Counted from the first letter of the stretch, positions 3,030 through 28,110 are shown. The stretch: DNA of 58,231 nucleotides from an uncultured Nitrospirota bacterium (GCA_964606955.1 CAZSHZ010000093.1:1-58231); one strand, 5' to 3'. A program made the numbers and translations. The notes: generated by a model not told the origin, from the letters alone.

Positions 3030-3086
3030 CGTTGACCCGATTACGCCGCCGTGGTATTTTCCTCTAAAATCTTGAGGAGGGGCGCG

Positions 3087-3767
3087 ATGAACAGACAGAC
3101 GCAGGCGCTAATCGCCGAGGGGATCGGGACCTTCATCTTTTTCACGATCGGAGCAGGGTCGATCATCACCGACCAGATGACGGGGGGAAAGGTCGGTCTC
3201 CTCGGGATCGCGGCGGCCCATGGGGTCATCCTGGCAATCATGGTCTCGGCCTTCGGGCATATCTCCGGCGGTCACTTCAACCCGGCCGTCACTACAGGCC
3301 TCTGGGCGGGAAATAAGATCGGCGGAGCCCTGGCGGCCCTATACATCGGGGCCCAACTGGTCGGGGCCGTCGCCGCCGGAGTCGCGCTTCGGATCGTCTT
3401 TCCGGAAAACGTCTGGCGGCCGGTCCACCTCGGCACGCCCGGGCTGGCGCCCGGAGTCGGGTTCTCCACCGCTGTATTCTTGGAGATTCTGATGACATTC
3501 TTTCTGGTCACCGCCGTCTATGGAACGGCCGTGGATGCCAGGGGACCGAAGATCGGAGGGTTCGCGATCGGCCTGACGGTCTTCTGCGACATTCTGTTGG
3601 GCGGACCGCTCACCGGCGCTTCAATGAACCCCGCGCGGACGTTCGGTCCCGCCCTGGTTTCAGGCTACTGGGATAACCACCTGGTCTACTGGATCGGGCC
3701 GTTGATCGGCGGGGCGCTGGCGGGCCTGGTCTACAACAACTCCTTTCTGGAGACCAGGAGCAGGTAA
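3087..3767 (+). CDS. MIP-family aquaporin/glycerol-facilitator-like channel
   Basis: Two NPA boxes (GGHFNPAVT and ASMNPARTF) and six hydrophobic segments. ATG at 3087 follows GAGGAGG at 3074-3080; the track ORF extends to a GTG at 3051. Confidence 0.9.
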   Translation: MNRQTQALIAEGIGTFIFFTIGAGSIITDQMTGGKVGLLGIAAAHGVILAIMVSAFGHISGGHFNPAVTTGLWAGNKIGGALAALYIGAQLVGAVAAGVALRIVFPENVWRPVHLGTPGLAPGVGFSTAVFLEILMTFFLVTAVYGTAVDARGPKIGGFAIGLTVFCDILLGGPLTGASMNPARTFGPALVSGYWDNHLVYWIGPLIGGALAGLVYNNSFLETRSR

Positions 3768-3789
3768 CGGGTTATTATAGGGGCTTTTG

Positions 3790-3818
3790 CCCCAAGCGCG
3801 CGGCGCTCGGGGACCCCC
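3790..3818. repeat. GC-rich palindromic element, copy 1 (CCCCAAGCGC-GCG-GCGCTCGGGG-ACCCCC)
   Basis: 10-bp arms with one mismatch, a 3-nt loop and an ACCCC tail. Preceded by the mini-hairpin GGGGCTTTTGCCCC at 3780-3793. Same architecture as the copies at 3854, 8315 and 27053. Confidence 0.7.
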
Positions 3819-3853
3819 AGCGTCGCCCCCTCCACCGGCAAAGCCTGATTCCA

Positions 3854-3882
3854 CCCCGAAGGCTCGGCCTTCGGGGACCCCG
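3854..3882. repeat. GC-rich palindromic element, copy 2 (CCCCGAAGGC-TCG-GCCTTCGGGG-ACCCCG)
   Basis: Perfect 10-bp arms, a 3-nt loop and an ACCCCG tail. Confidence 0.75.
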
Positions 3883-3920
3883 CAAAACGCCTCCCCCTCT
3901 CGCTCGCGTTGCTCGCTGGG

Positions 3921-3952
3921 TAGATCCCCCCGCAAGCCGGTGGGGGGATCTA
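3921..3952. repeat. inverted repeat TAGATCCCCCC-N10-GGGGGGATCTA overlapping the tusA stop codon; possible transcript-end hairpin
   Basis: Perfect 11-bp arms at 3921-3931 and 3942-3952. No U-tract follows on either strand, so it is not a canonical intrinsic terminator. Confidence 0.4.
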
Positions 3953-4183
3953 CTTCATCTTCCTGACGTAGCATTTATAGATTTTTCCCTCTTCCACCAG
4001 CTGGAGGAGTTCCTGGCCTGAGGTCCTGCACCAGGCCGGCATATCTTTTTTGATCCCAACATCGTCGGAAAGGACCTCGACCACCTGCCCGATCGTCATC
4101 TGCTTCATCTTTTTGGAGGTCAGGATGATCGGGATCGGACAGTAGAGACCGAGGGTATCGAGGGTAAGATCCGCGACGATCAC
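3950..4183 (-). CDS. tusA: TusA-family sulfurtransferase
   Basis: 77 aa. N-terminal LDTLGLYCPIPI carries the CPxP active-site motif of TusA/SirA proteins. The start overlaps the stop of the upstream desulfurase-like gene by 4 nt. Confidence 0.75.
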   Translation of the reverse strand: MIVADLTLDTLGLYCPIPIILTSKKMKQMTIGQVVEVLSDDVGIKKDMPAWCRTSGQELLQLVEEGKIYKCYVRKMK

Positions 4184-5343
4184 CGGAGCCCCCCGCCCGC
4201 AGCATAGATCGGAGAGAGACGGCGGAGTTGAGCAACCTCCTTAGGAAAGACCTCCAGGACGTAATCGACCTGGGCATCGTCGGTCCCCCTTCCGAGCGAA
4301 AAGACCACCCCGCCGGCGGCGATGTTTGGGGGAAACCCCATTGCGGTGAGGACCGGCGAGATCTTCTGGGCGTGCGAAGCGCAGGAGGAGCCGGAGGCCG
4401 CGATGATTCCGCGGCGCTCAAGACTCTTGATCAGAGCCTCCGCCTCGACATATTCAACGCAGACGGAGGCGATCGTCGGGAGGCGGTGCTCCCGCGAACC
4501 GGTGACATGGACCAGCGGCGTCCGCTCGGCCAATCCGTCGAGAAGCCGGTCGCGAAGAGCGGCGATCCGCTCCCCGTCCGCCGAAAGTCTTTCGATCGCG
4601 ACCTCGGCGGCGGCCCCCATTCCGGCGATCGCGGCGACATTCTCAGTTCCGGCGCGTCTCCCCTCTTCCTGGATCCCCCCCTCAATCAGCGGAAGGATCC
4701 GCACTCCCCGCCGGACAGTAAGAGCCGCCGCGCCTTTGGGGCCGTAAAAGGTCGGGGCCGCCAGGGTCAGCAGGTCAATGCCAAGACGCTCCAGATCGAC
4801 CGGAATGACTCCCACGCTCGCCACCGCATCGACATGGAAGCGAATCCCACGCGAGCGTAGGACTGGCGCAATCTGTTCGATCGGCTGGATCGATCCCATC
4901 TCGCTGCTCGCATGCTGGAGGGAAGCGAGAATCGTATCGGGCCGGAGGGCCCCTTCGATATTCCTCGGATCGACCCTCCCCTCTCGATCGACGGGGAGGA
5001 CGGAAACTTCCCACCCCTCCTTTTGAAGGCTTTGGAAGGGGTGGGCAACCGAGTAGTGCTCGACGGCCGAGGTGATCAGGTGCCCCCGTTTTCCGCGCGT
5101 GCTCCCGCGGATCGCCCAGTTATTCGCCTCACTCCCGGAGGCGGTGAAAAAAATCTCTTCCGGCGAGGCTCCGATCATTCTTGCGACGGCGGCGCGGGCG
5201 TGCGCGAGCGCCTCTTTCGGCTTTTGCCCGAGCGCATGGCGGCTCTGGGCGTTTCCGAAGTCATCGGAGAGAACCGGGAGCATCGCCTCGCGCGCCTCGG
5301 GCGCAAGCGGTGTTGCGCCGATATAATCCAAATAAACTTTCAT
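4180..5343 (-). CDS. cysteine desulfurase-like class V aminotransferase-fold protein in which the PLP-binding His-Lys is replaced by Pro-Thr
   Basis: Aligns along its full length with the bona fide IscS in this window. IDLLTLAAPTFYGPKGAAAL aligns with [20 protein letters not shown]. The persulfide loop Cys is retained (ASGSSCAS versus SSGSACTT). Confidence 0.8.
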   Translation of the reverse strand: MKVYLDYIGATPLAPEAREAMLPVLSDDFGNAQSRHALGQKPKEALAHARAAVARMIGASPEEIFFTASGSEANNWAIRGSTRGKRGHLITSAVEHYSVAHPFQSLQKEGWEVSVLPVDREGRVDPRNIEGALRPDTILASLQHASSEMGSIQPIEQIAPVLRSRGIRFHVDAVASVGVIPVDLERLGIDLLTLAAPTFYGPKGAAALTVRRGVRILPLIEGGIQEEGRRAGTENVAAIAGMGAAAEVAIERLSADGERIAALRDRLLDGLAERTPLVHVTGSREHRLPTIASVCVEYVEAEALIKSLERRGIIAASGSSCASHAQKISPVLTAMGFPPNIAAGGVVFSLGRGTDDAQVDYVLEVFPKEVAQLRRLSPIYAAGGGLR

Positions 5344-5347
5344 GCCG

Positions 5348-5365
5348 GCCTATGATACCATAGGC
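5348..5365. promoter_or_regulatory. perfect palindrome GCCTATG-ATAC-CATAGGC within the 24-nt spacer between divergent start codons
   Basis: Read directly from the DNA. The spacer between the minus-strand ATG (5343) and the plus-strand ATG (5368) is almost entirely this dyad. Confidence 0.35.
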
Positions 5366-5367
5366 AT

Positions 5368-5685
5368 ATGAGGTTCGGCCTTCTCCTCTCCACTCCGCCG
5401 GAAGCGCTTGATTGCGAGACCGCCGTCAATCTGGCAAGTCGTGCGATCGAACGGGGAAATGAGGTCTATCTCTATCTTGTCGACGACGGGGTGAAGAACC
5501 TCGATCGTCCTGAGATCTCCGATCTTACCCGGCGGGGGGCCCACCTCTTCCTCTGCGCATACGGCGGACAGCGGCGTGGGATTCACGCCTCCGATCCGAA
5601 GCATGCCGACTTCTCCGGCGCCTTCGCCGGGCTCGTCGTCCTCTCCGATCTGGTAAAAGGCTGCGACAAGTTCGTCTCCTTTTGA
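5368..5685 (+). CDS. DsrE/TusD-like sulfur relay protein
   Basis: MRFGLLLS start. LFLCAYGGQRRGI matches the TusD NICVAAALRRGV active-Cys region, and the C-terminal GCDKFVSF resembles TCDRVVQF. Confidence 0.65.
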   Translation: MRFGLLLSTPPEALDCETAVNLASRAIERGNEVYLYLVDDGVKNLDRPEISDLTRRGAHLFLCAYGGQRRGIHASDPKHADFSGAFAGLVVLSDLVKGCDKFVSF

Positions 5686-6020
5686 AAGTCGTCGTCCTTA
5701 TCCGGACCGACCCACGATCCTCTCACCGCCCCTGCGAGGGGGTCCGGATCGCGTTAGGGCTCGCCGCCGGCGACCATGAAGTGGACGTTATCCTCTCGGG
5801 GAAGTCCCCGCTGCTGCTCTCCCAGACCGACGATATGGTCGACGGAGAGATGGCCGAGAAATATCTCCCCTCGCTCAAGGAATATGTTCCGAAATTCTAC
5901 GTGGAGAGGGAGACGGTTGATCCGGCCGATCTGGACGGGACCGATTATGAAATCGAGCCGCTGGGTGCAAAGGAGGTCGCGCAGAGGCTAGCTTCGGCCG
6001 ATCGCTCGATCATCTTCTGA
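5682..6020 (+). CDS. DsrF/TusC-like protein
   Basis: 112 aa with a 4-nt overlap with the preceding gene. MKVVVLIRTDP start, DsrE-fold-like pattern, and a C-terminal ...IIF ending as in TusC. Confidence 0.5.
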   Translation: MKVVVLIRTDPRSSHRPCEGVRIALGLAAGDHEVDVILSGKSPLLLSQTDDMVDGEMAEKYLPSLKEYVPKFYVERETVDPADLDGTDYEIEPLGAKEVAQRLASADRSIIF

Positions 6021-6262
6021 TGCCCCGCAAGATTCTTCATATCGTGCGGCGCACCGACGACCCGCACGCCCTCGCGGTGGCGGCGCGCCAGCGCGAGGCA
6101 GGGGAAGAGGTGACGGTGGTGTTGATCCACGAGGCCGCCGGGGTTCCGGTGAGCCCGCCGAAACCTCTGGAGGGGGCGGTCTTTCCGCTGCCCCCCTCCG
6201 CCGAGGGTTACGACCGCCTTTTTGAGCTGATCGCGGTCGCCGACTCGATCGTCACCTGGTAA
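6020..6262 (+). CDS. DsrH/TusB-like protein
   Basis: 80 aa with start overlapping the previous stop. The C-terminal YDRLFELIAVADSIVTW resembles the TusB tail YTDFVRL...MAW. This is a weak call. Confidence 0.4.
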   Translation: MPRKILHIVRRTDDPHALAVAARQREAGEEVTVVLIHEAAGVPVSPPKPLEGAVFPLPPSAEGYDRLFELIAVADSIVTW

Positions 6263-6265
6263 GTC

Positions 6266-6475
6266 CTAGCGATTGGCGCGGTGCTCTTCGAGCCAGGCCA
6301 TCTGGATCGCCTCGAGTTTCCCTTCGGTCGAGACCTTCGGGTCGTCTGCGAAATCGGGGAGTTCGGTCACACAGCGGTGGAGGTCGGTAAAGCGTACGGT
6401 CAGCGGATCGAGATCCGGAAATTTCTCCGCCAGCGCGATTCCAATCTCTTCGGCGTCCTCCCACATCAGGGCCAT
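6266..6475 (-). CDS. iscX: Fe-S assembly protein IscX
   Basis: [46 protein letters not shown] is typical of IscX/YfhJ. Start chosen at the ATG at 6475, which forms an ATGA overlap with the fdx stop; the track ORF extends further upstream. Confidence 0.8.
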   Translation of the reverse strand: MALMWEDAEEIGIALAEKFPDLDPLTVRFTDLHRCVTELPDFADDPKVSTEGKLEAIQMAWLEEHRANR

Positions 6476-6798
6476 CAGTGCTGCTCCGCGACCCGCCAGC
6501 TCTGCGTCTCCGGCAGGATCTCGACGGTGACGTCTCCCTCCTTCAGCCGCGCCTGACAACCGAGGCGGGAGGTCAGGGTGAGCCCTTCGGCGGTGTCGAG
6601 CCGGTCCTCCTCATCCTCCTGCATCTTGGAAAGATGATCTATGCCCGACTTCACGATGACATGGCAGGTCGTGCAGGCGCAGTTTCCGCCGCAGTTGTGT
6701 TCCAGTTCGATGTGATGCTCCAGGGCCACATCCAAAATGCTCTGCCCTTCTTTCCCCTCCACCGTGATGTTCTGGGGAAGAAAGGTGACCTTAGGCAT
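6475..6798 (-). CDS. fdx: ISC-type [2Fe-2S] ferredoxin
   Basis: Cys ligands sit in the [12 protein letters not shown]...C pattern. Positioned after hscA. Confidence 0.9.
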
Positions 6799-8644
6799 CT
6801 TTCTTCTCCAGCGCTTCTTTGACGGCGCGGCTCATCAAGCTCTCGGCCAGCGGCATCGCGGCCGAATCAAGCCTCTCCAGCGCCTGCCGGATCGCCTGAT
6901 GGTCATTTCCGGCAACCGCCTGCTCGACCCCCTTCCTCGCCTCCCGAATCTCGGCGATCATCTCCGGGGCAGCAACCCCCTCCGCCTGCGCCAGCGCCTT
7001 TTCGGCGTGACGCAAGACCCCCTGGGCCTCGGTCCGCGCCTCAATCAGCATCCGCTCGGACATATCGGCGCGGGCGAAATGGATCGACTCCTCGATCATC
7101 CGCTCGACCTCGGCGTCCATCAATCCGTAAGACGGCTTCACCTCGATCCCCGCCTCCTTGTTCGTCCGCAGTTCCTTGGCGCGGACCTGGAGGATGCCGT
7201 TCGCGTCGATCAGAAACGTCACCTCGATCTTGGGGATCCCCGCCGGCATCGGATCGATCTTAAGATCGAAGCGCGCAAGCGAGCGGCAGTCGCGGACCAG
7301 TTCGCGCTCCCCCTGCACCACATGGATCGGCACCCTCGTCTGCCCGTCCATAAAGGTCGTGAACATCTCTTTGGCGGAAGCGGGGATCGTCGTATTGCGC
7401 GCGATCAGCTTGCTGACGACGCCCCCCATCGTCTCCATCCCGAGCGACAGCGGCGTCACGTCCAGCAGGAGAAGATCCTTAATGCCGCCGGCGAGGATGT
7501 CGGCTTGAACCGCCGCGCCGAGCGCGACGACCTCGTCGGGATTGAGCTCCGAGTGCGGCTTCTTGCCGAAGACCTCCTCGACCCGTCGGCGCACCAGAGG
7601 CATCCGGGTAGCCCCGCCCACAAGAATCACCTCATCGAGCTGTTCGGGCGCAAGCCGCGCATCCTCAAGCGCCTGGCGGCAGGGGGGGATCGTCCGCTCG
7701 ACGATGTCGGACGACCACTCCTCCAACTCGCGCCGGCTCAATACCCGGCGGTAGTCGACGCTGTCCCGGCAGACCGCCATCTCGGCGGTTGCTTCGAACG
7801 AGAGGCGGCACTTCGCCTCCTCGGCCGCAAGACGGACCGCCTGCATTAACTCCCGGTCGGCCTCGATCGGGCCTCCCGCCCGCTCGGCGACCTCCCCGGC
7901 CACGCGATCGACGATCCGCCGATCGATGTCGTCTCCTCCCAGGTGGGTATCGCCGTTCGTCGCGAGGACCTCAAAGACCCCCTCCTTGATCTTGAGGATT
8001 GAGATGTCGAACGTCCCGCCCCCCAGATCGTAGACCGCGATGATCCCTTCCTTCTTCTTCTGAAGCCCGTAGGCGAGGGAGGCCGCCGTCGGTTCATTGA
8101 CGATCCGCAAGACCTCCAGCCCCGCGATCTTGCCGGCGTCCTTCGTCGCCTGTCTCTGCGCGTCGTTGAAATAGGCCGGGACAGTGATGACCGCCTGGCC
8201 GACCAGCTCGCCGAAGAAGAGCTCCGCCCTCCGCTTCAACTCCTGGAGGATCAGCGCGGAGATCTCGGGCGGCGTGTAGATCCGCCCCCCCACTACGATC
8301 CGGACGATCTCCCGCCCCGAGCGCTCAGCGCTCGGGGACCCCGACTGCTGGGGCCCCGACTCCTCCGAGAGTCGGAACGGGAAATAGGCCAACTCGCTTT
8401 TGACATCGTCGCTCCCTCTCCCCATGAACCGCTTGATCGAGTAGATCGTCTGCTCCGCGTTCACAACGAGCTGCTTTTTGGCCTCGTATCCGATGCTCGC
8501 CGAGCCTTCCGGAGAGAAAGTCACCACGGAGGGGAGGAGGGGCCTCCCCTTCTCGTCCGGAATGACGCGCGGCTCCCCCCGATCCATGAAGGCCACCAGG
8601 CTGTTGGTCGTTCCGAGATCGATTCCGACCACGCGCGAGCTCAT
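6791..8644 (-). CDS. hscA: Fe-S cluster assembly chaperone HscA (Hsp70 family)
   Basis: [24 protein letters not shown] and the full Hsp70 architecture. Start set at MSSRVVGID (ATG at 8644), an ATGA overlap with the hscB stop. The 63-aa upstream extension in the track overlaps hscB. Confidence 0.95.
8315..8343. repeat. GC-rich palindromic element, copy 3 (CCCCGAGCGC-TCA-GCGCTCGGGG-ACCCCG), inside hscA coding sequence
   Basis: Perfect 10-bp arms, a 3-nt loop and an ACCCCG tail. Translated on the minus strand as ...[10 protein letters not shown]... Confidence 0.7.
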
Positions 8645-9285
8645 GAACGCCTCCCGATCAGAGCATCCCTGTGCGACAGCGCCGCGTCGATATCGGCGAG
8701 AAGGCGGGCGAAGTACCCAGCCTGGCCGAGGATCTGCTTCATCTCCTCGATAATGCGTGGATCCTGGCGGGCATCCCAGTCGCCCTTCATCCTCTCCAAC
8801 CGTTCGAGCCTCTGCCAATCCCGCTCCCGCCACCGGTCGCGCGCCTTCGCGAGTCTCTCCAAGATCTCGGCAGAGCCACCCCTCGCCTCCTCCATCAGTT
8901 CCTGAAGCTCTAGAACCTCCTCAAAAAGGTCGGACGGCGGCTTCTCGGCGCTGTCGGCCACCTCGGAAGGACCCCCAACCAGCCGGACGAGGTAGGCGGT
9001 CCGTTCCATAGGATCCCGAAGGGTGCGGTACGCAAGGTTCACCCGCGCCGTATTGGCGAGCGAGATCTCCCGTTCGGTCTCGGAGGCGCGCTGGAAGTAG
9101 TCGGGGTGAAACCTCCGCGATAATTCGTGGTAGCGCCGCTCGAGATCCTTCGGGTCCAGATGAAAGCAGCGCGGGAGGCCGAACAGGGCGAAATGATCCC
9201 TCTCTGCAAGGGGCTGGATGGCCCCGCAGTGGCCGCAGCGCCCCGCGGTCTCCTCAATCTCTTTTTTGCATCTCCAGCAGGTCAT
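8641..9285 (-). CDS. hscB: co-chaperone HscB with an N-terminal tetracysteine zinc-finger
   Basis: J-domain with HPD (RRFHPDYF) and a C-terminal helical domain. N-terminus is [23 protein letters not shown] (CxxC-x11-CxxC). Confidence 0.9.
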
Positions 9286-9290
9286 TTAAC

Positions 9291-9332
9291 CCAAAAAAAG
9301 AAGAGCCCTGATTCGGGTCGCCTCAGGGCTCT
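9291..9332 (-). terminator. intrinsic-terminator-like hairpin between iscA and hscB
   Basis: Minus strand reads AGAGCCCTGA-ggcgacccgaa-TCAGGGCTCT followed by TCTTTTTTTGGG. The U-tract ends 7 nt before the hscB ATG. Confidence 0.55.
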
Positions 9333-9372
9333 TTCGCGTACAGCGTTTGCGCGGGAGGGGCGGCCGTTTATC

Positions 9373-9762
9373 TCAGGCCGAGAACGACTCCCCGCACCCG
9401 CAACTCCGTTTGGCGTTCGGGTTGCCGAATTTGAAGCCCCCTCCCACCAGCGCATCGGAAAAATCGAGCGTGATGCCGGTGATGTAGAGCGCGCTCTTCG
9501 GATCGAGCAGGACCCGCAACCCATCGAACTCAAAGAGCTGGTCGTGCGGCCCCGGTTCGTTCTCAAATGTAAGCGTATAGCTCAGCCCTGAGCACCCTCC
9601 TCCTTTGACGCCGACCCTCAACGGTTTTCCAACGGCGTTCTCCGCAACGGCCAGCTCGCGGGCTTTTTTTACGGCCGCCGGGGTCAGCACGATCGGAGGG
9701 GCGTCCGAGGCGGGGGACAGGCTCTCTGCCCCCGCATTCATCTGAAGAGGCTTCGTCTCCAT
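9373..9762 (-). CDS. iscA: A-type Fe-S carrier IscA
   Basis: GGGCSGLSY and the C-terminal CGCGESFSA motif of the HesB/IscA family. Confidence 0.9.
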   Translation of the reverse strand: METKPLQMNAGAESLSPASDAPPIVLTPAAVKKARELAVAENAVGKPLRVGVKGGGCSGLSYTLTFENEPGPHDQLFEFDGLRVLLDPKSALYITGITLDFSDALVGGGFKFGNPNAKRSCGCGESFSA

Positions 9763-9769
9763 GATCCTC

Positions 9770-10168
9770 CTAGGCCGGCACCTCCTGCGTCGCCGCGGTC
9801 TTCTTTTTGTAGTCGGCGATCGCGGCCTTGATCGCGTCCTCCGCCAGGACCGAACAGTGGATCTTCACCGGCGGAAGGGAGAGCTCCTCGACGATCGCGG
9901 TATTCCTGATCTTCATCGCCTCATCGATCGTCTTTCCCTTCAGCCATTCGGTCGCCAAAGAAGACGACGCGATCGCGCTGCCGCAGCCGAAGGTCTTGAA
10001 CTTGGCCCCTTCGATGACGCCGTTGCTGACCTTGATCTGCAGTTTCATCACGTCCCCGCACTCGGGGGCCCCCACGATCCCCGTCCCAACGCTCGGATCG
10101 TTCTTGTCGAGGCTCCCGATATTGCGCGGATTGTTGTAATGGTCAATGACTTTTTCGCTGTACGCCAT
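9770..10168 (-). CDS. iscU: Fe-S scaffold IscU
   Basis: GAPECGDVMKL, FKTFGCGSAIASSS and LPPVKIHCSVLAEDA supply the three conserved Cys residues. Confidence 0.95.
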   Translation of the reverse strand: MAYSEKVIDHYNNPRNIGSLDKNDPSVGTGIVGAPECGDVMKLQIKVSNGVIEGAKFKTFGCGSAIASSSLATEWLKGKTIDEAMKIRNTAIVEELSLPPVKIHCSVLAEDAIKAAIADYKKKTAATQEVPA

Positions 10169-10185
10169 TTATCCCCCCGTTCTGT

Positions 10186-11406
10186 TTAATCCCGTGTCCA
10201 CTGGACCGTCTTCAGGTCGATCCCTTCCTTCGCCATCTCGTAAAGCGGGGACATCTCGCGCAGCCGCTTCACAGTCTCGATGACCCTCCCGATCACGTAG
10301 TCGATCTCCTCTTCCGTGTTAAACCGCCCTAAGCCGAAGCGGATCGAGGAGTGAGCCAGGTCGTTCCCCACCCCGAGCGCCCGAAGCACGTAAGAGGGCT
10401 CCAGGCTGGCGGTCGTGCAGGCGGAACCGGACGAGAGGGCGATCTCATTCAAGCCCATCAAGAGCGATTCCCCTTCCACATAGGCGAAACTAATATTCAC
10501 GTTGTTTGGCAGCCGCCGCACCGGATCTCCGTTGAGGTAGACCTCGTCCATGCCGGCGAGAATCCTATCCCGAAGTCTGTCCCGCAGGCAGGTCAGGCGC
10601 TCGCTCTCTTCCGACATGACCTTCGCGCAGATCGCACAGGCCTCCCCGAACCCGACGATCAGCGGGACCGGGAGCGTCCCCGAGCGCATCCCCCGTTCAT
10701 GCCCCCCTCCGTCGATGAGCGGCGCGATCCGCACCCGCGGGTTCCTTTTACGGACATAAAGCGCGCCGACCCCCTTGGGGCCGTAGATCTTGTGCGCGGA
10801 GAATGACATCACATCGATCCCGGCAGCGTTGACATCCACCGGGATCTTCCCGACTCCCTGCGTGGCGTCACAGTGAAAAATGATCCCCCGCTCCTTGGCC
10901 CATTTCCCGATCTCGTTCACCGGATTGATCGTTCCGATCTCATTGTTGGCCAGCATGATCGAGATCAGGATCGTCTTCTCGGTCGTCGCCGCCTTCACGT
11001 CGTCGGGGTTGACGACCCCGTCCGGCCCGACGGAGACATAGGTCACCCGATATCCCATCTTCTCCAGCCGCTTGCAGGTGTCCAAGACCGCCTTGTGCTC
11101 GGTCACCGCGGTGATGATGTGATCGCCCTTCTCCCGATACATCTCCGCGACGCCTTTGAGGGCCAGGTTGTCCGATTCAGTGGCGCCGGAGGTGAAGATG
11201 ATCTCCTTCGAATCGCAGTGGATGAGCGCCGCGATCTGCTTGCGGGCATTTTCCACCGCCTCCTCGGCTTGCCACCCGAAGAGATGATTGCGGCTCGCCG
11301 CATTCCCGAATTTTTCGGTGAAATACGGCAGCATGGCCTCAACCACCTTGGGATCGGTCGGGGTCGTAGAATGGTTATCCATAAAGATCGGGAACTTCAG
11401 CATCAT
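10186..11406 (-). CDS. iscS: cysteine desulfurase IscS
   Basis: [17 protein letters not shown] contains the PLP lysine, and [21 protein letters not shown] contains the active-site Cys. The C-terminal DLKTVQW tail is typical of IscS. Confidence 0.95.
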
Positions 11407-11867
11407 ATCTCCTTCAAGGATCCAGACAAGGATCCCGATTCGACGTTCAGGGTCGCGGCCGGGAGCGGCTCATCCTGTCGGTAGAGATCCTCGACCGTCA
11501 TACTGTCGAGAAAGGCGGTGAGGGAGTCCTGGATCTTCCGAAAAGGGGTGCGGACGGTGCAGAGATCGACGTGCTCGCAGCGCTGGTTCTCGTAGCATGA
11601 GGCAATCCGGACCGGCCCCTCGATCGCGCGGATCACCTCGCCGACCGTGATTTCGTCCAGATCCCTGGAGAGCGTGTATCCCCCCTTCGGCCCATTGTGG
11701 CTCACGATGATTCCGCCTCTGACCAACTTCTGCAAAATTTTCGCTAACAACTCCGGAGGGAGACGGTAGAACTCCGAAATCATCTTCGCGTTGACATTGA
11801 CATCAAGCGACCCCATATACTGGATCGCCATCAGGCCATAGTCGATACGTTTCGTAAGTCTCAGCAT
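11403..11867 (-). CDS. iscR: Rrf2-family Fe-S regulator IscR
   Basis: [15 protein letters not shown] winged-helix N-terminus. Cluster ligands are spaced C-x5-C-x5-C ([13 protein letters not shown]). First gene of the isc operon. Confidence 0.85.
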
Positions 11868-11980
11868 CTTTAACTCCTGGTAGAAAGCCGACTATTTTTA
11901 TCGGACTTAGTTAAAAGGAAGATAACATAGGCCTTTAGGGGTGTCAAGTTATTTCCGATGAAAATTGTCGGAGACCCGGG

Positions 11981-12895
11981 TCAGGCTCTCGCTTGCGCCT
12001 TTCTCTTATCTGATTTCATCAATAAAAGCAATGGGCTGGCGATATACCATGAGGAATAAGTCCCGACGATAATCCCAAGGAGAAGGGCAAGCGAAAAATC
12101 GTGGATCGTCTCCCCGCCGAACAGATAGAGGGCGATGACCGCCAGCAGCGTGGTCAGCGAGGTGTTCAATGTCCGCGAAAGGACCTGGTTGATGCTGGCG
12201 TTGATCGCCTCCTCCAGCGACTCTCTCCTTTTAGTCCGCAGGTTTTCCCGGATCCGGTCAAAGACCACCACCGTGTCTGTCAGAGAATAGCCGGCGATCG
12301 TCAAAAGGGCCGTGACGAGAAGGAGCGTGACCTCCTTATTCATCAGAAAGAAGAGGCCGAGGACCGCCAGGACGTCGTGAACGGTAGCGGTCACCGCGGC
12401 AAGACCGAAACGAAAGTCGAAACGGACGGCGATGTAGAGGATGATTCCGATCAGGGAGAGGAAGATCGCCACTGTGGCGTCCTTCCGCAATTTCTGGCCG
12501 ATCATCGGCCCAATCTCGGTTGCGCTCTCGACGACGAAGCGGTTGTCGGGGACCGCCTCCATGAGCGCCACGACGATCCGGTCCGGAGTCCCCTCCCCCA
12601 CCTCCTGCTTGCGCAGGCGGACCAAAAACCTGTCCCCCCCGGTGAACTCCTGGATCTCCGCGTCGGAAAACCCCTTGGCGCCGAGCGCCTCCCGCACGCG
12701 CTCGATCAGAAGGGGCTTGTCGAGTTTCAATTGCAGGGCCATCCCTCCGGAGAAATCGATCCCGAGATTCGCCCGGCCGCGATAGATCTGCACCACGGCG
12801 GCCAGGCCGATCAGGACCAGAATCGTCGAGAAGACGAAGAAATATCTCCGCTTTCCGATAAAATCGAAACGGGTATCTTTGAAGATCTCGATCAA
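11981..12895 (-). CDS. secF: protein translocase subunit SecF
   Basis: Typical SecF pattern (GIDFSGG, six TM segments). 4-nt overlap with secD. Confidence 0.9.
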   Translation of the reverse strand: MIEIFKDTRFDFIGKRRYFFVFSTILVLIGLAAVVQIYRGRANLGIDFSGGMALQLKLDKPLLIERVREALGAKGFSDAEIQEFTGGDRFLVRLRKQEVGEGTPDRIVVALMEAVPDNRFVVESATEIGPMIGQKLRKDATVAIFLSLIGIILYIAVRFDFRFGLAAVTATVHDVLAVLGLFFLMNKEVTLLLVTALLTIAGYSLTDTVVVFDRIRENLRTKRRESLEEAINASINQVLSRTLNTSLTTLLAVIALYLFGGETIHDFSLALLLGIIVGTYSSWYIASPLLLLMKSDKRKAQARA

Positions 12896-14529
12896 ATCGA
12901 CAGCCTCTCGAGGCGCCTCAGATTCACCAGGTCGAAAACCACCTTGGTCCCGATCAGCGACGTAAAAAGATTGATGATCACCCCCAGCGAGAGGGTAACC
13001 GCGAACCCCTTGATCGGGCCGGTCCCAAAGAGGAACAGGACAAAGGCGGTGATCAGGGTGGTCACATGGGAGTCGAAGATCGTGACGAACGCCTTAGAGT
13101 ATCCGGCGTCCACCGCAAGCCGGGGAGGCTTCCCGGATCGCAACTCCTCGCGGATCCGCTCGAAGATGAGGACGTTGGAGTCGACCGACATCCCGATGGT
13201 GAGGATGATCCCGGCGATGCCGGGGAGGGTCAGCGTGGCGTTGAGGGCGGCCAGGGCCCCGATCAGAAGAATCATGTTGAACACCAGCGTGAAGTCCGCG
13301 ATCACTCCGGAGAGACGGTAATAGAAGATCATGAATCCTCCGACCAGCACCGTCCCCACGATCCCCGCTTTCATCCCGTGATCGATCGAGTCGCGCCCGA
13401 GCGAAGGACCGACGGTGACGTTCTGGATGATCTTCACCGGAGCCGGGAGGGCGCCCGCCCGCAGCACGATGGCAAGATCGCTCGCCTCCTCGGTCGTAAA
13501 CGAGCCGCTGATCTGGGCCCGCCCGCCGGAGATCCTGTCCTGAATCACCGGCGCCGAGTAGACCGTGTTGTCCAGAACGATCGCCAGCCGCCGCTTGACG
13601 TTCTCTCCGGTCACCCGCTCAAAGATTTTCGCCCCCGTGGCGTCGAACGTGATGGAGACATAGGACTGGTTGAAATTGTCGAAGGCGACCCGCGCATCCG
13701 AGAGGAGATCCCCGGTCAATGCGGCCTCCTTTTTCACAAGGAGCGGGGTCTTTGTCACGCGCCCGGTCTCCCGATTCACCCTCCGCTCGAAGAGGATCTG
13801 GCCCCCGGCGGGGACTTTCGGCGAGAACTCGTTGAAGACCTTCTCCTCCTCCTCCGGCGGGATCGAGACGGGGAGCTCCCGCCCGACAGGGGACTCCTCA
13901 TCGATCAGTTTGAATTCGAGCAGCGCCGTCTTGCCGATCAACTCGATCGCCCTCTGGGGGTTCTTCACCCCCGGGAGTTGGACCAGAATCTGCTTGGCCC
14001 CCTGCTTTTGAATCAACGGCTCGGCGACGCCGAACTGGTCCACCCGATTCCGGATCGTCTCCAGCGCCTGTGAGGTCGAGGAGTCGAGCACCCGGCTCAC
14101 CTCGCTCTCCTTGGGGGCGAATACGATCTCGCTTTCGGATTCCCGGACCAATCGAAAGGTCGGGAAATTGTCCGAGACGAGCTTCTCCGCGGCGGTCCGG
14201 GTGGAAGCATCGGCGGTCCGGACCCGGATCCCCTCCTCGATGCGATCGACCCCCACGATCCCCGAAACCTTCTTCTCTTCGAGAACCCTCTTCATGGCCG
14301 GTGCCGTCCGATCGATCATCCCTGCGATCGCCTTCTCCCCTTCGACCTCCAGGACCAGATGCATCCCTCCCTGCAGATCGAGCCCGAGGTTGACCCCGCG
14401 GCTCGGGAGGTATCTCTGCCACCATCCCGGCAGACTCGAATAGAGAGGGGTAGAGGGGAGAAAGAAGATAATCGAGAGAAAGACCGTGGCAAGGATCAGA
14501 AGCGCCCGCCGCTGGATCCTCTTTTTCAC
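12892..14529 (-). CDS. secD: protein translocase subunit SecD
   Basis: LGLDLQGG motif, a large periplasmic domain, and a C-terminal six-TM domain resembling SecF. Confidence 0.9.
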   Translation of the reverse strand: MKKRIQRRALLILATVFLSIIFFLPSTPLYSSLPGWWQRYLPSRGVNLGLDLQGGMHLVLEVEGEKAIAGMIDRTAPAMKRVLEEKKVSGIVGVDRIEEGIRVRTADASTRTAAEKLVSDNFPTFRLVRESESEIVFAPKESEVSRVLDSSTSQALETIRNRVDQFGVAEPLIQKQGAKQILVQLPGVKNPQRAIELIGKTALLEFKLIDEESPVGRELPVSIPPEEEEKVFNEFSPKVPAGGQILFERRVNRETGRVTKTPLLVKKEAALTGDLLSDARVAFDNFNQSYVSITFDATGAKIFERVTGENVKRRLAIVLDNTVYSAPVIQDRISGGRAQISGSFTTEEASDLAIVLRAGALPAPVKIIQNVTVGPSLGRDSIDHGMKAGIVGTVLVGGFMIFYYRLSGVIADFTLVFNMILLIGALAALNATLTLPGIAGIILTIGMSVDSNVLIFERIREELRSGKPPRLAVDAGYSKAFVTIFDSHVTTLITAFVLFLFGTGPIKGFAVTLSLGVIINLFTSLIGTKVVFDLVNLRRLERLSI

Positions 14530-26527: not shown

Positions 26528-27979
26528 TTACTTGCGGGCAGGCGCCGCCGCCGGGATCCGCTCCGCCTTGACCTTGGCGATCCGCCGGCCGTCCATGTCG
26601 ACCACGGTAAACTTGAAATCGCCGTAATAGATGATATCCCCACCGCGCGGGACCGCCTGAAGTTGGGAGAGGACGAAACCGCCGAGCGTCTCATATTCGG
26701 GAGATTCAGGAAGGACCAGACCCCAGTCCGAGGCGAGGTCGCGGATCGCCAAAGAGGCGTCGACGGCCAACGAGCCATCTTTCAGGCGCTCCACGGGCCG
26801 CTCTTCGATATCGTATTCATCCCGGATCTCGCCGACGATCTCCTCGATCAGATCCTCCATCGTGACGAGCCCCTCTACGCTTCCATACTCATTGACGACG
26901 ATCGCCATCTGCATCCGCCGCCGCTGCAGCTCTTTTAAAAGATGGCTCACCTTCATCGTCTCGGGGACGAAAAAGACCGGATGCAACAGATCGACGAGTT
27001 TGACCTCGGCGGCGCCGCCCTCCGGATTCCTGCGAGCGTCGGGCTTTGATAGCCCCAAAGACGCGGTCTTTGGGGACCCCGGGTCCTGCGCGAGCGCCTG
27101 AGGTCTGGGGGTTGGCTCGGAAGGGGGCAGGCCCCCTTCCGCATCATTCTTGGTCACCTTCTCGGCGAGGGTGGCCAGGAGATCCTTAAACACCAGGATC
27201 CCGCAGATATCGTTGATATTGGTCTTGTAGACCGGATAGCGGGAGAACTTGTTCTCGGCGACGAACTTCAAGACCTCCTGAACGGGGGTGTCGCTCTGGA
27301 GGGCGTGAATGTTGAGACGGTGAACCATCACCTCCCGGACGGAGATGTCGTGGAACTCGAAAACGGAATGGATCAGCTCCTGCTCGGTTGGATCGAACAC
27401 CCCCTTCTCCCTCCCCTCTTTTAAAAGGAGTCTGATCTCCTCTTCAGTCACAAAGGGGCCTGCCGGACCGGGACCCAACGGCTTTAAGATCCAGCGGCTC
27501 GTGGCGGTCAGAATCCGGGTCAACCAGGAGGAACTGCGGGCAAAAAACTCCATCGGAATGGCCACCCAAAGGGCAAGACGCTCGGGGTAGCGGATCGCCA
27601 ACGACTTCGGGACGAGCTCGCCAAAGGTCACGTTCAGATATGAGATCAGGACGACGGCGATGATCATTGCGATCGCCTCGCTGAAGCCGGCAAGAACCGG
27701 ATTGTCGAGACCCGCCAGATACGGCTTGAGGCTCTCAACCGCAGCCACCCCTCCGACCGCAGCGGCAGCCGATCCGACGATCGTGATCCCTACCTGCACG
27801 GTGGCAAGGAGCCGCTCAGGGTCCCCCTGGAGGAGGGCAGCCGCCCGGGCCGCCCGGTTCCCTTTCTCGGCCAACTCCTTGATGTTGCTCTTACGGGCCG
27901 CAATCAGCGAAATCTCGGCGCAGGCGAAAAACCCGTTTGCTAGGATCAGAAGGAGGATGAGGAGAATCTGCCAGGGCAT
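26528..27979 (-). CDS. CNNM/HlyC-CorC family transporter (DUF21 + CBS pair + CorC_HlyC) with a low-complexity insert in the CBS region
   Basis: N-terminal DUF21 TM domain (ANGFFACAEISLIAARK), CBS pair and the C-terminal CorC_HlyC domain (LGGFVLSQLQAVPRGGD). Start set at MPWQILL (27979). Confidence 0.85.
   Translation of the reverse strand: MPWQILLILLLILANGFFACAEISLIAARKSNIKELAEKGNRAARAAALLQGDPERLLATVQVGITIVGSAAAAVGGVAAVESLKPYLAGLDNPVLAGFSEAIAMIIAVVLISYLNVTFGELVPKSLAIRYPERLALWVAIPMEFFARSSSWLTRILTATSRWILKPLGPGPAGPFVTEEEIRLLLKEGREKGVFDPTEQELIHSVFEFHDISVREVMVHRLNIHALQSDTPVQEVLKFVAENKFSRYPVYKTNINDICGILVFKDLLATLAEKVTKNDAEGGLPPSEPTPRPQALAQDPGSPKTASLGLSKPDARRNPEGGAAEVKLVDLLHPVFFVPETMKVSHLLKELQRRRMQMAIVVNEYGSVEGLVTMEDLIEEIVGEIRDEYDIEERPVERLKDGSLAVDASLAIRDLASDWGLVLPESPEYETLGGFVLSQLQAVPRGGDIIYYGDFKFTVVDMDGRRIAKVKAERIPAAAPARK
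27053..27081. repeat. GC-rich palindromic element, copy 4 (CCCCAAAGAC-GCG-GTCTTTGGGG-ACCCCG), inside the CorC-family coding sequence
   Basis: Perfect 10-bp arms, a 3-nt loop and an ACCCCG tail. Preceded by GGGCTTTGATAGCCC (27041-27055) as in copy 1. Translated as ...PGSPKTASLG... Confidence 0.7.
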
Positions 27980-28110
27980 AAGGACAGAAGTAGCATAGCA
28001 TACCGGGTTCCCACCCACAAGAAGAAGGGAGGCGAAAAAATTATTGACAGAGAACAAAAATGCCCGTAATATCAGCAATCACGATTTAATCGATCGGAGT
28101 TATATACATC

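Follow-up and report, generated by a model that had tools for sequence, protein, structure and literature searches.

A probable mosaic of selfish REP-like palindromic repeats in the aquaporin/tusA spacer of an uncultured Nitrospirota bacterium

Introduction

In the genome of an uncultured Nitrospirota bacterium (GCA_964606955.1), an aquaporin-like gene and tusA converge on a spacer crowded with GC-rich hairpins. The question raised by this locus is whether these hairpins serve the two genes, arose by chance in GC-rich DNA, or are repeats that propagate on their own account. The window, that is, the whole stretch of DNA analyzed, comprises 58,231 nt (CAZSHZ010000093.1:1-58231) and lies on contig C93 of a 1.88-Mb draft genome (187 contigs, 61% GC, 94% complete, 0.1% contaminated). 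A first-pass annotation, made from the sequence alone, had reported three hairpins in this spacer, two of them copies of a dispersed palindromic element recurring at two further sites in the window. The features discussed below are as follows (window coordinates):

3051-3767, plus strand: aquaporin-like gene (open reading frame, MIP-type by eye); its stop codon TAA (3765-3767) bounds the spacer on the left
3776-3920, plus strand: unit X, one copy, doubly interrupted, X being TATAGGGGCT / GTCGCCCCCTC-CACCGGCaaaGCCtGAT / GCCTCCCCCTCtCGCTCGCgTTGCTCGCTGGG
3786-3819, plus strand: element copy 1, TTTG + core 3790-3817 + about 2 nt, in the loop of X hairpin 1 (GGGGC...GCCCC)
3850-3888, plus strand: element copy 2, TCCA + core 3854-3881 + GCAAAAC, at the 3' foot of the X central hairpin
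3920-3953, no strand assigned: third hairpin, GTAGATCCCCCC-N10-GGGGGGATCTAC; the 5' arm continues the 3' end of X (GGGTAGATCC) and the 3' arm covers the tusA stop codon
3950-4183, minus strand: tusA (open reading frame, 77 aa), the right boundary of the spacer
8315-8342, plus strand: core inside hscA and antisense to it (HSP70 Pfam match), common to a related strain
27030-27142, plus strand: copy of unit Y with its own core (27053-27080), inside an open reading frame of 516 aa (26528-28078)

The reported spacer length of 182 nt was borne out (3768-3949). An identical copy of the TusA protein, with a Pfam TusA match, was present in the related assembly GCA_947085945.1.

Structure and copy number of the small hairpin element

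The core of the element is a rigid 28-nt unit, CCCC-N6-N3-N6'-GGGG-A-CCCC, usually with T-C-Y-R on its 5' side. Its geometry is constant: a 10-bp stem and a 3-nt loop form a 23-nt hairpin within the 28 nt. Copy 2 of the spacer (CCCCGAAGGC-TCG-GCCTTCGGGG-ACCCC) has the perfect 10-bp stem described for it (10/10 pairs), and the recurrences at 8315-8342 and 27053-27080 show an identical 28-nt architecture, exactly as claimed. Copy 1 (CCCCAAGCGC-GCG-GCGCTCGGGG-ACCCC) has the same architecture, but nine of its ten pairs form, with one A.C mismatch in the stem.

The pattern CCCC-N15-GGGGACCCC was found at 61 sites in the genome, and the reversed control pattern at none. The inner stem was paired at all six positions at 45 sites and at five or more at 57, and no such site appeared in 20 dinucleotide-preserving shuffles of the genome. 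When one mismatch and an A/G linker were allowed, 70 copies were counted genome-wide, and about 77 were retrieved with a covariance model trained on 44 different cores. A pattern count set against shuffled sequence and a covariance model had been proposed as checks by the first-pass annotation, which had considered that only its four copies might exist; the genome carries 45-61 sites (70-77 copies) against an expectation of about zero.

Covariation among the 44 distinct cores was strong. Paired cells made up 96.8% of the alignment, changes on both sides occurred at 6 of the 10 pairs (62 cells), and the covariation score was reached by 0 of 500 shuffles. These rows had been pre-selected for at least 9/10 pairs, and the unfiltered scan counts given above agree without that circularity. 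At least 16 arm variants were distinguished, compensated in every case, so that the arm changes are compensatory, as proposed. Near-identical subfamily copies with unique flanks also exist. Selection on structure, which had been suggested from this pattern, is best understood as acting on how the element itself propagates and not as benefiting the genes next to it.

When 41 copies whose flanks are unrelated were profiled, they revealed conserved unpaired positions (T at -4, C/T at -3, a purine at -1), a purine-rich 5' arm (RRR-G-G/A-C), an A linker and the CCCC run, often followed by G. The conserved unpaired flanks therefore indicate a strand-asymmetric element about 33 nt long. The conserved tag ACCCC on the 3' side of the stem corresponds to GGGGT on the 5' side on the other strand, and the GGGG(T) tag is complementary to the first four bases of the stem.

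Cores are mostly single and not arranged as inverted doublets. BIME-like mosaic arrays of cores with units X and Y (see below) were found on contigs C77, C104, C117, C54 and C175 and in the window spacer. The assignment to a dispersed REP/BIME-like or MITE-like family is supported by copy number, covariation and these clusters. A core, X or Y lay within 300 nt of 18 of 374 contig ends (4.8%), compared with 1.9% of random 300-nt windows. The repeats are thus one cause of breaks in the assembly, and the copy numbers given here are lower bounds.

Other sequence features were noted besides the core itself. In a longer variant, an outer stem surrounds the core (CGCGCCGG-TCTCTAAATCCA-core-GGA-CGGCGCG; C62:9116, C117:15167, C139:449, C140:131, C162:12236 and C170:22115), and a sister subfamily (C1:13604, C173:1142) shows compensatory changes in this outer stem. 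Small hairpins of another class also occur, with the form CCCC-N5-N3-N5'-GGGG; TAAGG comes after them at 7 sites and AATAG at 4. GATC, which often adjoins the hairpin elements (GATCTCTG-core-GATCT), occurs 26,872 times genome-wide against about 6,650 expected from base composition, an approximately fourfold excess.

Distribution in other genomes

Searches for the strict pattern gave 0-1 sites in each of 30 genomes of the order to which this bacterium belongs and 0-2 in each of 400 genomes of the phylum, with no family among the sites listed in either search. The strict 28-nt pattern matched 21 isolated stretches from unrelated taxa in the genome_contigs set of species genomes, which is about chance level. 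A two-copy match in Oscillospiraceae was rejected as a family, being a tandem duplication in DNA of 47% GC. The strict pattern with its 5' extension gave no match in JGI metagenome contigs.

The strict pattern under-reports in comparison with the more tolerant covariance model. With the latter, related families were detected in two genomes, G005 (27 copies, with a 2-nt loop) and G009 (17 copies, with an 11-bp stem), and 1-5 copies in genomes of one genus of the same order. All of these retain the shell YCYR-CCCC-AA...TT-GGGG-ACCCC. No match was obtained under stricter filters in 150 genomes of other orders in the phylum. These searches favor a distribution at the level of the order; for other phyla they provide only the strict-pattern result at chance level.

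The lone same-shell look-alikes in the 21 unrelated stretches, some of them followed by T-runs, would suit a compositional accident of GC-rich DNA, or terminator-like palindromes sharing CCCC/GGGG ends by chance. The counts refute this explanation, the probability of which is practically negligible in view of the excess over shuffled genomes, the fixed 10/3 geometry, the conservation of the unpaired 5' T-C-Y-R and 3' ACCCC, and the 0-2 sites in each of the other genomes of the phylum.

Unit X and its nested insertions

When the spacer was compared with its own genome by BLAST, almost its entire length proved to be repeated DNA in separable modules. The spacer had been described as three separate hairpins; it consists instead of one three-hairpin unit of about 80 nt, unit X, with two hairpin insertions. 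This delineation is based on the BLAST comparison, on intact and filled copies placed side by side, and on a consensus from 15 genomes. The full sequence of X is TATAGGGGCT-ygc-GTCGCCCCCTC-CACCGGC-raa-GCCGGATG-GAGCCTCCCCCTCA-CGCTCGC-gtt-GCTCGCTGGGG. About 30-37 copies, single and tandem, are present in this genome, including intact copies at C77:8975-9053 and C77:9169-9251.

The third hairpin had been given 11-bp arms at 3921-3952 and called unrelated to the others. Its overlap with the tusA stop codon (CTA, 3950-3952) was confirmed, but its arms measure 12 bp (3920-3931 and 3942-3953, with a 10-nt loop). Nor is it unrelated: the 3' end of X supplies its 5' arm, and its one look-alike in the genome (C1:20942-20972) likewise follows an X unit.

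The first interruption, between GGGGCT and GTCGCC, consists of TTTG, the core and CAGC (net +33 nt), where empty X has 3 nt (YGC). This site was filled in 12 and empty in 15 copies of the present genome, and empty in all 29 X copies sampled from 14 other genomes (TYGCGTC, with minor variants), which makes the insert seen here the derived state. The second interruption, after GCCGGAT, replaces 3-4 nt (net about +36 nt) relative to intact X (GCCGGATGGAGCCTCCCCC), and the same site is filled likewise at C54:2795-2822 and C117:431-458.

Further nesting was found elsewhere in the genome. At C155:~1000-1070, a reverse-oriented core (TTTCA + core + CTC, 36 nt) lies within the loop and 3' arm of another core, and the loop of the X central hairpin holds a 36-nt core at both C147:17155 and C175:230. 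Hairpin loops account for three of the four defined insertion targets. The insertions showed neither sharp element boundaries nor a consistent target-site duplication; they add 33, 36, 36 and about 36 nt, with variable extra nucleotides at the 3' side. GRTCT direct repeats flank some of the single copies and none of the nested ones. The composite X of the window was 94% identical over 142 nt to C54:2759-2900 and was therefore duplicated en bloc.

Of the components of the mosaic, X is the more intriguing one. A BLAST search against 30 genomes of the order retrieved it from 23 of them, with identities of 80-92% and as many as about 30 copies (for example, G017:C1:4048-4206 and 5653-5809). Across families, invariant C-rich single-stranded boxes (GTCGCCCCCTC, GAGCCTCCCCCTCA) surround a covarying 7-bp stem. 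An orientation bias of X was considered as a sign of function (17 vs. 1 in tandem contexts here) and was dropped because it was not reproduced in G009 (3 vs. 3, with rough gene calls). Complete genomes of one genus share a segment of about 1.45 kb that is flanked by two tandem pairs of X; the sole long open reading frame in it had no Pfam match.

Copies inside genes

Genes were called with a crude home-made codon-usage caller (1,855 genes, 88% coding). By these calls, 35 of the 70 copies were intergenic, 34 lay within predicted reading frames and one did so partially, several of the genic calls being artefacts of reading-frame extension near starts or ends. Many copies, of either orientation, lie well within conserved genes and leave the host frame open throughout. 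Their insertion is in frame, as in RPE-type elements, and Pfam domains span the insert in TsaD, glycogen synthase (GlgA), uroporphyrinogen decarboxylase (HemE) and ribonucleotide reductase. These four hosts were confirmed by Pfam and HscA through its HSP70 match, while ValRS (valS) and GrpE were identified from the gene calls of the related assembly. With the 516-aa open reading frame of the window, at least eight conserved host genes were confirmed; MutS, CheA and an HD-GYP response regulator were recognized as further hosts by eye only. The longer variant is in frame in three unrelated proteins, the HD-GYP response regulator, glycogen synthase and CheA, where it encodes an identical peptide of about 22 residues, VAPSGVPKSPAFGVDLETGAQS.

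Sixty-four percent of the copies were free of stop codons in all six frames, compared with 28% of random genomic 33-mers and 33% of shuffled elements. Copy orientation relative to gene direction was unbiased, and none of the 21 intergenic copies with two called neighbors lay between divergent genes. At C1:2479-3194, two cores of the same orientation with identical 5' flanks (TTTGAA) bracket a gene, and one of them is in frame within the adjacent gene for an ABC-transporter ATPase. The bracketed gene was considered as a transposase and rejected, as it encodes a NikR-like regulator.

Comparison with a near-identical strain

Over window positions 3951-14183, contig CAMTYH010000048.1 of GCA_947085945.1 aligns collinearly at 99.85% identity without gaps, and it also matches 3663-3766. 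Since the alignment is gap-free, this strain carries the hscA copy at 8315 too. Its aquaporin/tusA spacer is different: in place of the 182 nt of the window, a 119-nt unit Y extends from stop codon to stop codon (CAMTYH010000048.1, reverse complement, 105-223), with the sequence CTGCGAGCGCCGGGCTTTGATAG + CCCCAAAGAC-GCG-GTCTTTGGGG-ACCCC + GGGTCCCGCGCGAGCGC...GGAAGGGGACCAGTCCCCTTCCGC. The stop codons differ as well (aquaporin, TAA in the window vs. TAG in the strain; tusA, TAG vs. TAA). At least five full copies of Y are present in the genome of the window, among them the one at 27030-27142, which is 90% identical to the Y filling the spacer of the strain. GTAG-CTAC stands exactly at the aquaporin stop codon in the strain, and GTAG...CTAC forms the ends of the third hairpin in the window.

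The copies in hscA, valS and grpE are common to both strains. In all, four of four comparable genic copies are shared, which counts against a mobile-element reading and gives no sign of current transposition. With the spacer swapped between near-identical strains and the genic copies shared, the intergenic repeat content turns over very rapidly, whereas the genic copies are fixed and of greater age. The two sequences come from metagenome assemblies; in both, the sequence runs unbroken between unique flanks, which makes an assembly artefact improbable.

These data bear on the possibility that the hairpins are functional RNA for the convergent genes, either terminators lacking a U-tract or 3' stabilizers that block exonucleases. 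The position between convergent genes fits such a role, the spacer RNA folds more stably than shuffled sequences on both strands (z = -3.9 and -2.8), and both mRNA stabilization and transcription termination have been reported for REPs (PMC3733652, PMC6006769). A promoter/terminator scan of the spacer region found nothing, with no U-tract and no terminator-like site between 3650 and 4050 on either strand. Rfam searches gave nothing credible for window positions 3500-4300 and no match for intact X copies from five genomes, the only good one being an unrelated tRNA. Further, half of the copies lie within reading frames, in both orientations and in essential genes too, their orientation relative to neighboring genes is unbiased, and the near-identical strain has a different sequence in this very spacer. 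We therefore regard this explanation as quite unlikely. Specifically, a terminator or stabilizer role as the primary function is not supported, because a U-tract is lacking, genic copies occur in both orientations and the spacer is replaceable. The hairpins may have a side effect on the convergent transcripts, and nothing in the present evidence ties the element to aquaporin or TusA function.

The strain difference could also mean that no transposition occurs any more, the mosaic and the exchanged spacer being products of homologous recombination or gene conversion among dispersed modules, as in the neisserial intergenic mosaic elements (NIME), and the hairpin family a fossil. The whole spacer was exchanged from stop to stop, and the differences cluster in the last codons of both genes. 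In addition, the composite X, though a block copy of the C54 sequence, has only 94% identity to it, the compared genic copies are fixed in both strains, and no dedicated transposase was found. Recombination alone leaves unexplained the clean insertions into hairpin loops of unrelated repeats and into about a dozen unrelated genes, the near-identical subfamily copies with unique flanks, and the separate expansions in three genomes of the order (77, 27 and 17 copies). As a full account it holds a minority share of the probability; the spacer swap itself possibly took place through recombination between repeats.

Candidate mobilization systems

A PF01797 search found no RAYT gene in the 94%-complete genome, and no PF01797 gene flanked by cores. 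The three PF01797 matches were all of IS605 type, tnpA (138 aa) accompanied by tnpB, the third being a tnpA fragment at the end of contig C3. The IS605-type element (tnpA, 138 aa; tnpB, 392 aa) is present in at least two copies (C33:147-1850 and C89:2167-2656), one of which, inserted after CTTCA, interrupts a cation/proton antiporter gene. Its end hairpins, CCCCGGAC-TGAA-GTCCGGGG and CCCCGCAC-TTTA-GTGCTGGG, have 8-bp stems and 4-nt loops, and derivation of the core from an IS200/IS605 element (PATE) was rejected on this difference from its 10-bp stem and 3-nt loop. A MITE was likewise rejected, as there is no consistent duplication, GRTCT repeats accompany some copies only, and no insertion sequence with matching ends was found. 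Across 30 relatives, Y1 genes showed no correlation with X or core expansions, and RAYT-like open reading frames of 240-340 aa in relatives do not track X or core abundance. No strand bias relative to local GC skew was observed (27/60).

We consider it probable, at roughly three chances in four, that the spacer is a mosaic of selfish REP-like palindromic repeats moved as single-stranded DNA hairpins by a putative enzyme. The anatomy, in which a short hairpin bears a conserved unpaired tag next to the stem, fits the structural definition of REPs and of the ends of IS200/IS605 elements (PMC6006769). Movement as single-stranded DNA through a trans-acting enzyme is the model with the best support; weighing against it are the negative RAYT search, the different IS end hairpins, the lack of consistent element boundaries and the absence of strand bias. 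In this model, the element would spread as a single-stranded hairpin, and a structure-specific enzyme acting in trans would read the stem together with the adjacent unpaired tag, as in the REP/RAYT system and at IS200/IS605 ends. Stems would stay perfect as only foldable copies propagate. At the present locus, an X backbone has received two REP-like elements of about 33-39 nt each, one in the loop of hairpin 1 and the other at the foot of the central hairpin; the composite was later duplicated en bloc, with a paralogue on C54, and now fills the gap from stop to stop. If the hairpins terminate transcription or stabilize mRNA of the two convergent genes, they would do so only incidentally.

The core and the order-wide unit X share features that might point to a single non-RAYT mobilization system, with the core a miniaturized X hairpin, although we regard this as unlikely. 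The X central hairpin matches the core in geometry: if CTC/GAG is counted, its stem has 10 bp, its loop has 3 nt, the apex reads GC-nnn-GC, and a C-run comes next. Some cores carry X arm sequence (CCCC-ACCGGC-aga-GCCGGT-GGGG at C155:947), and one X copy in another genome (G023) has a typical core arm (CGAAGGC-aaa-GCCTTCG). Under such a shared system, the putative enzyme could recognize a hairpin plus a C-tract and target hairpin loops.

Significance and comparison with known repeat systems

The feature in the spacer is a real selfish repeat mosaic, ordinary in kind. For annotation, it matters that these repeats fill intergenic gaps and break assemblies, and gene models and protein alignments for this lineage must account for them. 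Conserved proteins gain loops of 11-20 residues, as in TsaD, ValRS, GrpE, HscA and ribonucleotide reductase. In addition, the filled and empty X sites, together with the spacer of the sister strain, provide internal controls that make movement without a known transposase testable.

Rickettsia palindromic elements (RPEs) are about 100-150 bp long. The core resembles them in being inserted in frame in conserved genes and read as an extra peptide, with few stop codons, and is set apart from them by its length of about 33 nt (11-13 residues); here, too, we know of no likeness in sequence. The neisserial NIME, composed of dRS3 hairpins and RS modules, are intergenic regions of interchangeable repeat modules that vary among strains, and the core mosaic is alike in this; we know of no sequence relation between the two. 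The end hairpins of the resident IS605 element share the CCCC...GGGG shell with the core. Unlike these ends, the core has the ACCCC tag and the 10/3 geometry, and no core flanks this IS605 element.

A further likeness is to the GTAG-tagged REP/BIME/REPIN elements of Enterobacteria and Pseudomonas, mobilized by RAYT (TnpA_REP), which are GC-rich hairpins of about 30 nt with an unpaired tag at the foot, present in tens of copies (PMC3733652, PMC6006769). The size range of 21-65 nt for short dispersed REP hairpins includes the core. Like REPs, the core has species-specific sequence, mosaic clusters and some genic copies (PMC3733652, PMC6006769), and it shares with them the avoidance of spacers between divergent genes (PMC3733652). 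The core differs from GTAG-type REPs in two defining traits, its tag, GGGG(T), with no GT[AG]G or CGTC, and the lack of a detectable RAYT gene, and further in having about half of its copies in genes and in its mostly single copies.

CGTC-tagged REPs are tagged palindromes for which no dedicated transposase has been identified (Di Nocera, De Gregorio & Rocco 2013, PMC3733652). Dimers of these REPs, and GTAG-family REPs, have been found inserted in other palindromes, and REPs also occur in coding regions (PMC3733652). As transposase-less CGTC REPs, REPs within palindromes and REPs in genes have all been described there, the kind of element is already known. The tag and stem sequence of the core differ from those of CGTC REPs, and Nitrospirota are not among the phyla named in that work (PMC3733652). 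The new parts are the GGGGT tag, the order-level distribution in Nitrospirota and the nesting in a second conserved structured repeat; with them, a GGGGT-tagged and apparently RAYT-less Nitrospirota family joins the REP-like elements.
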